From the NCBI GenBank assembly GCA_964016885.1, contig OZ024741.1, forward strand, positions 314,030,001 to 314,094,000: a stretch of 64,000 nt of DNA, in the 5' to 3' direction. Both the position numbers and the translations under genes were made by a program. Below the pieces are notes generated by a model. That model did no database searches, was not told the DNA's origin, and worked only from the letters and a program-made list of their open reading frames with translations. This DNA comes from Eledone cirrhosa (taxonomy: Eukaryota). Of the stretch, positions 6,154 through 62,080 are shown one piece after another; position 1 is the first letter of the stretch; the number at the start of each line of letters is the position of its first letter.

Positions 6154-6404
6154 TTGACTTGGTAGAGAGCAACAGAAACACGTCTGTTCACTTCAACAGT
6201 CCACTATAATATATCATACATATATATCCACACACATATATATATATATATATAAATTTTGAGTATATGTTGGTTGTATAACAACACCCCAGTATGCAAA
6301 TTGGAGCACTCGACGAGGTGCACAGGTTGGTTTGGTTACTCTGGAGTAATGTAAAATAAACTAAAATAAATAATTCAAATGTTTAAAATTTGGCTTCGTT
6401 TATT

Positions 6405-6459
6405 ACTGCTATATATATTTCGGTGACAGCCATCTTTGGCTGTGAGCTCTTCAGGCAGT
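6405..6459 (-). ncRNA. Minimal hammerhead ribozyme
   Basis: acugc CUGAAGA g..acagcca aaga uggcugu..c GAAA uauaua UA gcagu. Confidence 0.85.
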
Positions 6460-8019
6460 CCAAATTAGTGTGGTAGAGACGAGTACACATGTTGTTCAGG
6501 TGTTTAACTCTGTCAATACTCTGATATGCCCAGTTCCTGGTTGGGTTGTTATTTCACTGAGGAACTGGAATCATATGAATTTAAACAAACGAATTTCAGT
6601 GTCAAAGACATCTTCTCCTCCCATTGGTCAGTTGTGAGAACATTCCTCAGTCAAACGTCTATAGAAATTCGTTCTGAGGCGAGGCAATCTGTAGTGGTTG
6701 TTCTTGTTATTGTTAAGTACATCTTACCTCTACTCTTATGTTGGTAGTGGTGTTGGTGTTGGAGTCAGCTCAAAAAAATGATAAAGTGGTTGAAGGAATA
6801 AGATTTTAAAGGAACAAAATAAAATAAGATAATCAATTAAAAAGTGTGTGTTATACCCAATCTCAATGTTAGACGATTTGTAAGGTCACACTCCTCCCAT
6901 TGGTCAGTTGTGAGAGCATTCTTCAGTCAAAAGTCTACAGAAATTCTTTCTGGGGTGAGGCTCGCTGTTGTGTTTGTTTTTGCTATTGTTAAGTACATCT
7001 GACCTCTACCCTTATTTTGGTAGTGGTGTTGGTGTTGTGGTCAGCCTAGGTCTTGCTGCTGCTGACATTTAGGAGTATCTGTGTGTGTTTTTCATCCATC
7101 CTGCCACCATGTCTCGTGGTGGTGGGGTGGTGATGGTGGTGTGGGGATGTGCCATGCATATGAAGAAATCGAAGGCAATAAAATGAAGAAAACAGAAAAT
7201 AAATAATAATAAAAAATAGAAAATAAATGAAAAATTAATTTAAAATGAAAAATAAAAAATAAAAATGAAGATTCAAATAAAATAAAATGTGTGTGTGCCA
7301 TAACCAATATCAAAGTCAGAAAGATGTTGGATAAAGTGGTAGGAGGAACAAGGTGGTAAAAGTATAAAACAAAATAAGATAATCAAATAAAATGTGTGTG
7401 TTATAACCAATCTCAACGTTAGAAACATTTGCAAGCTCACTCCTCCCATTGGTCAGTTGTGAGAGCATTTCTCAGTCAAAAGTCTATAGCAATTCTTTCT
7501 GGGGTGAGGCTACCTGTTGTGTTTGTTTTTGCTATTGTTAAGTACATCTGACCACTACCCTTATTTTGGTAGAAACACACACAGATACAGAATTAACATC
7601 AAAGATGTCACACCATGTCATAAGCAGCTGTCCAAAGCTGTCATCGCGGTCATATCTACCTATGCGGCATGATGTAGTGGCCAACACACTATACAATGCA
7701 ATTAGTAGAAAAGATAGTCCTGATAATAAACAAATTAAAATCTAAAGCAATGTGGAAGACATACTGCTGCTGACATTTAGAAGTATCTGTGTTTGTTTCT
7801 TCATCCATCCTGCCACCATTTCTCGTGTTGATGGGGGGGGGGGTGTACCTTGCATATGAAGAAATAGAAGGCAATAAAATGAAGAAAACAGAAAACAAAT
7901 GAAAAATAAAAAAATAAAAAAAATGAAGATTCAAGTAAAATATAATGTGTATGTGTTATAAAGATGTTGGCCAAATTAAAAAGGCTGTGTCAGAATCAAT
8001 CTCTAAGCTATCATGGTGT

Positions 8020-8205
8020 TTGCTCAGCCTGGGTGGGTCCCTATGGCTTGATGGGAGTTCCCAACCTATGGTGTTGTAACTGCACATATAGCTTGAGGGA
8101 AGTCCGGCCAATAGGTGTCTACATCTTCTGGAGAAATCCCTATAGCTTGAGGGATGTTCACATCTCAGTGTGTTGTTACTGTCCATATAGCTTGAGGAAG
8201 GTTCC
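8020..8205. repeat. Degenerate ~50-bp minisatellite in PLE 3' UTR
   Basis: atagcttgaggga / atggcttgatggga recurs four times. Confidence 0.6.
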
Positions 8206-8721
8206 GGCCCTGAGGTGTCTGCCTGTCCCGAGGAAGTCGGTTCTGAGGTTTATCAGGCGGCTTCCACCTCTTAGTATCTCGAGGGTCTCGTTCAGACATA
8301 GTTTGTATATGAAAGATCCCCCTTTATCGGGTGGTACATTCCTGATTATGGACCAGGCCAGAGAGTACGGGGGTCATGTCCAGCTTAAGCTTCCAGATCA
8401 GGTCGAAAAGAGCCGTACTTTTCCTTTTGGCCTCCTTATTGAAGGAATGGCGATGATTCTACCAACAGTCTTTAAAGCTCGTTGATGTGGCTCCTATGTA
8501 GAGGTGTTTGGAGTTGGGGGTTTTAACCCTACATCGGTATATTAGGTTCTTCTTAAGGCATTCATTACGAAGGGGGCATGATTCGGGGTTTCTGCAGTTG
8601 CAGAGGGTGGTCGACCTCTGCGTGCCTAGTGTGGGGTTCACGTTCTTGTTACATGGTGGTCTTCCCCCGGGCAGAGTGGGGGGTCCACGGGTTTGTTTGA
8701 GTTTCTTGGGTGGGCACTGGG

Positions 8722-9605
8722 TCCTCCCTTTCCATTTTTCATTTTTCATTAATTTTTCATTTATTTTCTAGTTTTTATTATTATTTGTTTTCTGTTTTCT
8801 TCATTTTACTGCCTTCTATTTCTTCATATGCATGGCACAGCCCTCCACCACCATCACCACCCAACCACCACGAGAAATGGTGGCAGTATGGATGAAGAAC
8901 ACACACAGATACATATAAATGTCAGCAGCAGCAAGACCTAGGCTGACCACAACACCAACACCACTACCAAAATAAGGGTAGAGGTCAGATGTACTTAACA
9001 ATAGCAACAACAAACACTACAGCGAGCTTCACCCCAGAAAGAATTTCTATAGACTTTTGACTGAGGAATGCTCTCACAACTGACCAATGGGAGGAGTGAC
9101 ATTACAAATCTTTCTAACATTGAGAGAGGGTATAACACACACACATTTTATTTGATTATCTTATTTGATTTTGTTACTTTACCATCTTATTCCTTCTACC
9201 ACTTTATCATTTTTTTTACCTGACTCCAACAACAACACCACTACCAACATAAGAATAGAGGTCAGATGTACTTAACAAACACAAGAACAACCACTACAGA
9301 TCGCCTCGTCTCAGAACGAATTTCTATAGACGTTTGACTGAGGAATGTTCTCACAAAGACCAATAGGAGGAGAAGATGTCCTTTGACACTGAAATTCGTT
9401 TGTTTAAATTCATATGATTCCCGTTCCTCAGTGAAATAACAACCCAACCAGGAACTGGGCATATCAGAGTATTGACAGAGTTAAACACCTGAACAACATG
9501 TGTACTCGTCTCTACCAATATATATAGCAGTCACCGAAATATATATAGCAGTAATAAACGAAGCCAAACTTTAAACATTTGGCTTATTTATTTTAGTTTA
9601 TTTTA
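8722..9605 (+). repeat. Inverted copy of the PLE pLTR 6355-7250; HHR 5' half deleted
   Basis: Reverse complement of 6355-7250. At 9517-9535 the CUGAAGA half is replaced by a short duplication aatatatatagcag. Confidence 0.9.
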
Positions 9606-60406: not shown

Positions 60407-60520
60407 ATGGTTATCCGGACCACTGTGCTACCATGTACAGCAAGACATCACCCGTTGGTGTAAATGGTACCACAGTGGTCCGGATAACCAAAGAAATGGG
60501 TTCGACTCCCATGCACGTCA
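60407..60520 (+). mobile_element. tRNA-like SINE head (60452-60520) with a 5' snap-back copy
   Basis: A box tggtgtaaatgg, B box ggttcgactcc; 60408-60443 is the reverse complement of 60455-60490. Confidence 0.55.
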
Positions 60521-60885
60521 ATACTCATCTTTTTCCATTTCTCCGAGGGTTCTTAATCCCACTATCATGCTAAATAATTTCTTTAATTTCTTTAGTCACA
60601 ATACGGCGATAGCTTACATTTCTAATAATTTCAAACCACCTCACTGTTTCGAAAATATTCTTACACACGCACACGTATATATATATATATATATATATAT
60701 ATATATAATATATATATATATATATATATATATATATATATATATATATATATATATATATATATATATATATATATATATATATACACACACATACATA
60801 TATATATATATATATACACACATATATACACACATGTATACATATATACACATATATATACATATATACGCATATATATATATAC

Positions 60886-61495
60886 ATGGTGGCTGCCAAC
60901 TCGTTTTCGAGTACGGCCACTATTTATATCCATGTAGGAGAACCCCTACCAATGCGCTGAACGAGTGTGACTTTTTAGTCCAGCCAACGACTTGAAACCT
61001 CTGGTACAAACACTACACCTGTGACAATTATTGACACATATTGCTGGGCCCATGGTACCATGTGATGACAAGTGCAGAGAGATCTCCAGATATAAAGCAA
61101 TGCCTGTGCTGTGTAGCTTTTATAGTGAGCAAAGGCACTGCACAAAGCCAGTCCCACTCTCTTAACCAAGATGATATTTACCAAAAAGAAGAACAATTCA
61201 ACATCATTGGATACCATCAGGGTTGCAGGTGTTATATCAGAGTTTTCCTTCTCCTAGAATTCTGCCTTGACAAAGGCTAAGGGGTCATCTCTCCCGGTGA
61301 TTTTGGATGGCTATTGACTCTTAAGAGCCCCTTTGCCTTTTGACAGGTTTTGTTTGTAGTCCTGCAGGATGTCCAAAGCCACCCTCCTCACCAAGAAACC
61401 TTGGTGGAGTTGCCAGTTTAGTCGCCAACGACCCGACCATGAGACAGGTTGTACTGGGATACATGTTACCAGTAGCACCAACTGGTGACCTGACA
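60886..61495 (-). mobile_element. Non-autonomous RTE-like derivative, full copy
   Basis: [23 protein letters not shown]; reverse complement of 49918-50503. Confidence 0.7.
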
Positions 61496-61659
61496 TACAC
61501 ATACATACATATATATACATACATACACACACATACACCTATATATATATATATATATATGTACATAAATACACACAGAGATATCGACAGTATGCAGTGG
61601 GGTCCACATACATACACACATACATACATGTATTCATATATATATAAATATTTATATAT

Positions 61660-62080
61660 GTAGGGGGTGAGATTTATTGTAGTACATAAAGCAATGCAAA
61701 TATCGGATAAGTAGCACTAAACAGTTCATAGGACTGGAGTATAAATAATATAATATCAAAATATGGTTAAAAGAGTTCCATGTATTTTATTATGCGCATT
61801 TCAAAAACAGATATCATCATGGGATGATCTTTGCGTTCTCATCAGATAAAGTAGGGAGACATAATATGAAGCTTAAAAAACACTTGCTAGCAGTGAAGTG
61901 TAGATATATGTATATGTAAATTTAACGCTTCACTGCTCGCAAGTGTTTTTTAAGCTTCATATCATGTCTCCCTATTTTATCTGATGAGAACGCAAATATC
62001 ATCCCATAATGATATTTGTTTTTGAAATGCACATAATAAAATACATGGATCTCTTTAAAACATGTTTTGATCTTATATTG
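61660..62080. mobile_element. pLTR-end palindrome with tail; HHRs at 61783-61853 (-) and 61973-62043 (+)
   Basis: uauuuuau CUGAUGA gaacgcaaauauc..gauauuuguuuuu GAAA ugc(g/a)ca UA auaaaaua; same family as 14680. Confidence 0.88.

Follow-up and report, generated by a model that had tools for sequence, protein, structure and literature searches.

The window analysed here is a stretch of 64,000 nucleotides (nt) from the 3.0 Gb genome of Eledone cirrhosa (assembly GCA_964016885.1, contig OZ024741.1, positions 314,030,001 to 314,094,000 of the forward strand). It is dense in (TA)n tracts and Penelope-like elements (PLEs), among them PLEs of the Hydra clade with an open reading frame (ORF) and ORF-less tandem families. 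A first-pass annotation had listed eight bulged hairpins and three weaker versions at the TA junctions of hammerhead repeats that it took to be unrelated, and had proposed them as a shared mobilisation signal. The coordinates and letters of the eight main hairpins are all correct, and the link to the TA junction is also seen in other genomic copies. The repeats are mostly truncated Hydra ends, and the 11 places represent only eight families (F1 to F8): the eight main hairpins belong to six of them (14563, 15243 and 39520 are all F2) and the weak ones bring the total to eight (15025 and 61716 are both F3). Comparison of sequences indicates that the hairpin is a real, clade-level RNA motif, that it is doubled, and that it accounts for the position of both insertion ends.

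Hydra-clade PLEs carry a C-terminal endonuclease (EN+), and their TA targeting and tail are known from the available text of Craig et al. 2021 (PMC8557442). The F8 ORF in the window has RWR at the N-terminal RWK motif and SDKT, with DKT replacing DKG; among 35 aligned relatives the W is present in 34, and the D and K in all 35. A CxCx5C linker plus a GIY-YIG domain at the C-terminus, with CxxC and CxH flanking conserved E and N, are also present, and the elements combine a hammerhead in the pseudo-long terminal repeat (pseudo-LTR) with insertion into (TA)n, as is typical of the clade. Most hammerheads are predictions of our own descriptor; at one locus (L123) Rfam Hammerhead_1 scores above its gathering score. 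Pfam did not recognise the pieces of the Hydra ORF. Telomerase reverse transcriptase (RT) has its closest relatives in the RTs of PLEs. Telomerase RTs give the best alignments with the predicted structure of the Hydra protein (pLDDT 84; Z of about 17, root-mean-square deviation of 4-6 Å, 300-380 residues). Among the 50 structure matches listed, only the telomerase ones cover the first 60 residues of the model, which contain a conserved R-x-R-W helix. A telomerase-like fold by itself shows no function, and searches of the PDB found no PLE structure.

Hydra elements were gathered via the protein alone, independently of the motif. Metagenome contigs returned 77 loci, of which 44 had an aligned N-terminus and at least 170 nt upstream, leaving 31 non-redundant elements, all from other organisms. 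The motif lies before the ORF twice in 19 of these, once in 9 and in none of the remaining 3. The hairpin comes as a pair (copy 1 and copy 2), which the first-pass annotation had missed. As controls, one copy occurred in 3/31 antisense strands and in 10/148 windows within ORFs, and dinucleotide shuffles gave any copy in 146/1550 and two copies in 10/1550. A stricter descriptor, requiring two upper pairs, found two, one or no copies in 11, 13 and 7 of the 31. The consensus is GCUC-Y..R-UH-GAGC-ACU, with the 3' ACU flank in 40/47 copies. Copies 1 and 2 are 55-83 nt apart in the metagenome elements and 97-108 nt apart in this genome, and the start codon of the metagenome elements lies 28-131 nt 3' of both copies. 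Two protein searches of the present genome gave 5' regions of which most intact ones have two copies between hammerhead and start codon. Published Hydra consensus sequences (PMC8557442 supplement) extend the comparison: one from a sea cucumber begins two bases before copy 1 and contains copy 2, a second from a sea cucumber and one from a coral have one copy plus a short tail as their end, and another coral consensus stops before the motif region. The breadth across the clade is thus that of 31 metagenome elements near one query, the families of this genome and six published consensus sequences; no relative was found in viral contigs.

The motif is not equally frequent in shuffled sequence, since both the Hydra 5' regions and the window exceed their shuffles. 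A loose descriptor gave 26 hits in the window against a mean of 7.2 in block shuffles (maximum 14 among 30 shuffles). Roughly half of the 26 are chance-like, AU-rich stems, and specificity therefore comes from position. One metagenome copy 2 (L104:437-461) has a 15-nt inner stem-loop identical to that of the F3 copy 1 at 15025-15049, from which most F3 copies differ by one letter; the flanks look unrelated, and the identity may be chance or old kinship.

Instances with variable loops could not be aligned by MAFFT, and an anchored count and a covariance model were used instead. The count, with anchors on invariant letters only, comprised 56 sites with the typical 3' flank from 108 anchors; the 52 anchors set aside by the flank filter leave the direction unchanged when included. 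Pairs 1, 5, 6 and 7 were Watson-Crick in 47, 50, 36 and 30 of the 56 sites, against permutation means of 32.7, 34.3, 16.3 and 14.9. The covariance model was built on 10 equal-length copies, and in the resulting alignment of 53 rows, which leans to the given structure, 98.5% of cells pair, with 10 double changes at pair 5 and 2 at pair 1. Pair 5 switched between C-G and U-A about five times independently on an RT tree of 19 elements (counted by eye). The compensatory changes reported earlier for base and upper stems thus apply to the outer and upper pairs, but not to the core pairs, which are invariant. A fifth base pair below the stem is unsupported (16/56 against 21.7 expected). In local folds, the lower stem had a pairing probability of at least 0.5 in 38/47 copies.

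The bulge reads UU, UA or UC at 50/55 pairing-free anchors and is never UG; with G permitted, its second letter is U in 30, A in 9, C in 8 and G in 0 of 47 copies, which agrees with the earlier statement that G does not occur there. The pair preceding the bulge is Watson-Crick in 50/56 sites. These letters match those of the arginine sandwich motif (ASM), in which a Watson-Crick pair precedes a bulge that starts with U, and a G-C and an A-U pair follow in this order. Rfam gave no covariance-model match over the motif in 15 loci (E up to 1), and among the best 150 of its 209 matches in the window nearly all are microsatellite-driven microRNA hits.

For F8, F5, F2 and F6 we surveyed insertion ends with genome queries that fall short of the first end and are thus blind to end type. 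The 116 copies comprise 77 with an end 1-13 nt ahead of copy 1, 26 with an end 1-14 nt ahead of copy 2, 12 that run on and 1 that ends at +2 via TA-like letters. In these four families, 103/104 ending copies therefore stop 1-14 nt before one or the other motif copy. F1, F3 and F7 were excluded from this figure as the TA flank of the reference confounds their automatic end classes; by eye they have the same two ends. The end rule predicted a copy 2 a few bases past the tail end, and such a copy was found in F7 (L367, L376) and, imperfectly, in an ORF-bearing relative of F3 (L390). No copy 2 was seen for F4 or F1, where none of 45 and 0/19 tail hits, respectively, extend beyond the tail end. End positions shift with the motif copies as inter-copy spacing varies among families. 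Among ten metagenome 3' repeats that stop within their contig, four stop 0-3 nt before a scored copy into (TA)n and two stop near copy 1 by eye. Because copies stop just before copy 1 or copy 2, the known PLE tail matches the spacing between the two motif copies. A plain second hairpin without common sequence lies in the tail between motif copies in the group of F1, F3, F4 and F5 (e.g., 15075-15093, 18111-18133).

Fold-back insertions have the same two ends. All 32-33 fully ended arm pairs are mixed, a copy-1 end on one arm facing a copy-2 end on its partner, and none are alike; some insertions in this number were possibly counted from both arms. In F4 alone, mixed pairing was found in 20/20. 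A cDNA that ends before copy 2 does not include it, and copy 2 must therefore act on the template. The letters at both ends are TA-like and able to pair with the target. The 5' end of some copies (L037; window 12007) falls exactly on the TA-like letters preceding a motif copy; microhomology to the target may be the reason.

By contrast with the insertion ends, the hammerhead cut is at no fixed distance. The motif had been placed 49-61 nt downstream of the cut in five families; we measured 51-63 nt at five places in four families only, and about 290 and 120 nt in two tandem families. As for the proposed mobilisation signal in cis, the motif is conserved, covaries and has a fixed position behind both ends, but it is tied to these ends and not to the cut.

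The earlier list had missed six genuine copies in the window (Table 1), four of them second copies. Its weak instances had different fates. The hairpin at 16504 is 5' of the F7 hammerhead, and 19 other copies have no TA junction there; as other copies show, the true F7 motif lies 3' of the hammerhead, and the window copy stops at the first end, before the motif pair. The instance at 59076 is a motif with a different span than was given, decayed from the GCUC..UA-GAGC form seen in other tail-bearing copies, and that at 61716 is indeed a motif, decayed from the intact F3 sequence. F7 (L367, L376; window 16340-16564) has a hammerhead and both motif copies; after copy 2 there is no Hydra protein hit, and the longest ORF starting with methionine (Met-ORF) has 84 codons in 1 kb. 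F7 may be a longer element that is non-autonomous and contains several long hairpins.

Table 1. Motif copies and related features in the window, with positions counted from its first letter.
Feature	Position	Strand	Remark
F1: copy 1 within tail of truncated element	6308..6347	-	Hydra endonuclease remnant upstream, 8194-8575
F2 (ORF-less 656-bp tandem family): copy 1	14563..14598	+	
F2: copy 1	15243..15278	-	
F2, diverged member: copy 1	39520..39561	-	
F2: copy 2, UCUC/GAGA variant	13924..13941	-	overlooked earlier
F3: copy 1 within tail of fold-back insertion	15025..15049	+	
F3: decayed copy 1	61716..61740	-	
F4: copy 1 within tail of fold-back insertion	18159..18178	-	
F5: hammerhead core to predicted cut	23564..23602	+	own descriptor scan
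F5 (full Hydra PLE): copy 1	23664..23690	+	family copies end 3-13 nt before copy 1
F5: copy 2	23760..23777	+	overlooked earlier; 36 nt 5' of start codon; tail-bearing copies end 7-14 nt before
F5: Hydra-clade RT/GIY-YIG ORF, broken	23813..25844	+	
F5: 3' pseudo-LTR, ending into (TA)n at first end	26476..27378	+	
F6 (ORF-less 525-bp tandem family): copy 1, GUUC/GAAC variant	50882..50912	+	
F6: copy 2, UCUC/GAGA variant	50990..51006	+	overlooked earlier
F7: long hairpin, not the motif	16504..16564	-	lies 5' of F7 hammerhead
F8: copy 1, decayed here	59076..59097	-	intact in 6 other copies
F8: copy 2	58982..58998	-	overlooked earlier; tail-bearing copies end 6-7 nt before
F8: Hydra-clade ORF, frameshifted	56412..58940	-	RWR, DKT, YRDD, CxCx5C, C-terminal GIY-YIG
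F9 (ORF-less 584-bp tandem family): intact motif copy	12010..12035	+	overlooked earlier; F9 copies do not end beside it
F9: probable decayed copy 2	12116..12132	+	directly behind single F9 end; putative homologue of copy 2
Additional copy 1	38497..38530	-	overlooked earlier; flanks resemble ORF-bearing copy L099

Comparison gives good support to a shared signal in cis that serves mobilisation and occurs in Hydra PLEs with an ORF as well as in hammerhead repeats without one, but the motif is restricted to a clade. Of the units thought to lack an ORF, those of F2 and F6 do so; the families at 15025 (F3) and 18159 (F4) are ends of ORF-bearing Hydra families, F3 matching ORF-bearing Hydra 5' regions at 86% and F4 at 78%. 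The tandem units of F2, F6 and a further family, F9, have longest Met-ORFs of 47, 33 and 25 codons, respectively, and no Hydra protein hit was found in them; nor do F2 and F6 have blastn similarity to the tested Hydra 5' regions. F2 and F6 retain a putative hammerhead, both motif copies in variant form and both ends, and multi-unit tandem insertions occur in both. A look-up of RNA data containing the F6 unit listed none, which says nothing about its expression. Both core boxes of the hammerhead are present in F2 and F6, and the second box looks degenerate in F9. Matches to the Hydra protein less than 1.5 kb from the copies sampled are similarly infrequent in every family and cannot separate autonomous from non-autonomous families. 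F9 (window 12007-12689 (+) and 33669-34524 (-); L438-L467) combines an intact copy 1 with a decayed copy 2.

A second PLE type in the window (35227-38150, 40661-47610, 52200-53166) has YVDD, a CxxxxCxxC linker, a C-terminal endonuclease and a minimal hammerhead. Its insertions also lie in (TA)n; the two ends, used by 15 and 14 of 30 copies, are separated by about 60 nt. Its tail can fold on itself; a search of this tail, up to the second end, found no motif on the sense strand. The motif is called clade-restricted on account of this second TA-inserting hammerhead PLE type, in the tail of which, despite the two ends, it is absent. Other repeats nearby include three tandem units of about 518 bp (27434-28945 (+)) that have a CUGAUGA box and end in (TA)n, in which the descriptor found no motif copy, and a fold-back element of another family (34844-35225) with a hammerhead core in both arms and TA flanks. 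A broken element of the long interspersed element (LINE) type, with Pfam matches to APE endonuclease and RT, occupies 28932-32582 (-) plus a piece at 11007-11859, and 1-2190 is a tandem repeat with units of about 500-540 bp, each with an internal TA tract of variable length.

We infer recognition of the motif by the RT or the endonuclease of the Hydra protein, and consider it probable that the motif pair is the RNA site at which this protein loads and starts target-primed reverse transcription at two sites. Two protein molecules, possibly as a dimer, would bind the two hairpins on one RNA. At the cut in (TA)n each would take one side and prime on AU-rich letters that lie 5' of a hairpin; priming from both sides of the cut would produce the fold-back and leave a tail on one side only. 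Circular or tandem hammerhead RNAs that have no ORF but retain the hairpins would make use of the Hydra protein.

Several observations weigh against this reading. The permutation ignores kinship among copies, the core C-G and U-A pairs are constant in 53/53 rows and hence without covariation support, and the descriptor was set after viewing the metagenome sequences. The first-position U of the bulge is missing at 5/55 sites and in some distant Hydra elements, the published copepod and octopus consensus sequences (PMC8557442 supplement) match the motif only imperfectly, and among the ten metagenome 3' repeats two stop at the hammerhead and two are unclear. F9 is the most direct exception: 27/30 copies end about 105 nt downstream of the intact copy, before the decayed copy 2, only 1/30 ends before the intact copy, the 5' ends vary and the 3' end is single and fixed, and there is no fold-back among the 30 loci. 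A simple rule in which each hairpin alone sets the adjacent start is contradicted, because F9 ends at the decayed copy. Since F9, with its decayed copy 2, almost never has the upstream end and shows no fold-backs, the two sites appear not to be independent, and the upstream start and the fold-back may require both copies; F9 is a possible natural mutant of such a two-site mechanism.

Other explanations have to account for the same end positions. If a host or element nuclease cut the RNA just 5' of each copy and ordinary target-primed reverse transcription from the 3' end followed, the ends would fall where they do, and RNA-seq read ends of an anole PLE do coincide with its start sites; however, according to the available text of the same report (PMC11167929), uncut RNA given to the anole protein in vitro is copied from internal starts. 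For the multi-unit tandem insertions of F2 and F6 the template must extend beyond the hairpins, and the strict pairing of unlike ends is easier on one intact RNA, which together make cutting unlikely. The hairpins could instead be passive template boundaries, with the protein recruited elsewhere and priming on AU-rich letters beside any stable stem. The F9 end, which persists next to a decayed copy, and the TA-like letters at both ends that can pair with the target would suit this idea. A stem alone would then do, yet the core sequence, the bulge U and the 3' ACU flank are conserved among proteins about 45% identical, and the stems are weak; we regard passive boundaries as quite unlikely.

Reading of the motif as DNA by the GIY-YIG endonuclease, in donor or target recognition, has a precedent in the Drosophila Penelope tail, where Frangieh et al. 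2024 (PMC11167929, available text) cite a need for the tail in endonuclease recognition of plasmid DNA, and GCTC/GAGC is an inverted repeat. It is nonetheless improbable: the spacer varies continuously from 6 to 17 nt and the inner pairs covary, as would suit a hairpin but not a site in duplex DNA, insertions enter (TA)n without the motif, and a cDNA hairpin cannot contain copy 2. The location of both copies 5' of the start codon would be natural for a translation or stability element of the 5' untranslated region whose nearness to the ends is incidental. That the motif is kept with compensatory changes in units without an ORF of more than 47 codons, and that end positions track the copies when spacing differs between families, leaves this very improbable. 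Chance hairpins in AT-rich repeats do arise, at about seven loose-descriptor hits per shuffled window, and one listed instance (16504) was false, but enrichment, covariation and position refute chance as the general explanation and its probability is negligible.

Returning to the motif pair as a loading site for the Hydra protein, two extensions can be offered with less confidence. By analogy, the invariant bulge U with G-C and A-U may form a U.A-U triple of the TAR/7SK type that is read by an arginine, possibly one of the Hydra-specific N-terminal RWK helix; we hold this tentatively. More broadly, and as a conjecture we would not yet favour, tail and fold-back could be the traces left by a twin RNA handle. 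An RT dimer resembling telomerase would grip two TAR-like bulged hairpins on one RNA and begin two cDNAs simultaneously from the two sides of a double-strand cut, with both handles needed for the upstream start. The same handle would license animal retrozymes hijacking a specific PLE clade, and a cassette of 100 nt would load any RNA for TA-targeted insertion.

The choice of internal starts by PLEs, the one-sided tail with its inverted arm and the machinery that moves animal retrozymes are open questions according to the available text of PMC11167929 and PMC7761336. A motif of 20-40 nt, present twice and predicting both ends, makes such questions reducible to mutagenesis. It also offers a marker, at the level of sequence, for placing ORF-less hammerhead repeats in a PLE clade, a rule by which element boundaries can be annotated and, as a defined RNA handle, a route to a PLE structure and to comparison with telomerase RNA binding. 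We found no description of the motif in the literature searched or in Rfam, a search beyond which figures, supplements, Repbase and subscription journals could hold a mention.

The elements have the protein motifs, the pseudo-LTR hammerhead, the (TA)n insertion, the inverted truncated arm and the one-sided tail of the Hydra clade; the RNA motif behind the ends is not described in the available text of PMC8557442, and PLE tails are put at 30-40 bp there, compared with 55-110 nt here. For PAc, a Poseidon element of the anole, two positions within the RNA serve as starts of reverse transcription and delimit the tail, RNA 3' of these starts is required and a protein dimer is predicted (Frangieh et al. 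2024, PMC11167929, available text). PAc, although of another clade, shares with the Hydra elements two starts downstream of the hammerhead and a tail between the starts. Its binding motif is placed only within the first 172 nt of the ORF and its start is described as an AC-rich stem loop; the available text names no doubled conserved motif, unlike the Hydra pair (PMC11167929). By analogy, the Hydra hairpins would fit as a start signal because they are placed, one per start, where the signal of the anole PLE should be. The ASM is known from HIV TAR and 7SK stem-loop 1, with a 2-nt UU bulge in 7SK ASM3 (Pham et al. 2018, PMC6189040, available text). The likeness of the Hydra motif to TAR and ASM3 is one of local secondary structure only (a U-first pyrimidine bulge, then G-C and A-U, with a Watson-Crick pair before it), and the context is unrelated (PMC6189040).

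Metazoan non-LTR retrozymes lack an ORF and consist of tandem units that contain a type I hammerhead (Cervera and de la Pena 2020, PMC7229834); PLEs have been proposed to mobilise them, and Xenopus retrozymes are kin to pseudo-LTRs (PMC7229834; PMC7761336; Li et al. 2026, 10.64898/2026.07.22.740005; all as far as their available text goes, as for further sources on prior knowledge of PLEs and retrozymes, PMC4209133, PMC6765202 and PMC5737381). A review states that metazoan retrozymes show no conserved motif indicating an autonomous partner (PMC7761336). Unlike the retrozymes treated in that review, F2 and F6 have a structural motif and the two-end pattern in common with Hydra PLEs, without blastn similarity. 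Signals in cis that load an RT are familiar from the R2 3' untranslated region, the 3' stem-loops shared by LINEs and short interspersed elements (SINEs), hepadnavirus epsilon and the telomerase RNA helices bound by the telomerase RNA-binding domain (TRBD). As with these signals, the Hydra motif would be a structured RNA handle that recruits the RT, determines where it starts and is open to imitation by non-autonomous partners; the R2, LINE/SINE, epsilon and telomerase signals are single sites, whereas the Hydra site is duplicated, lies 3' of the internal starts and matches a two-ended insertion.

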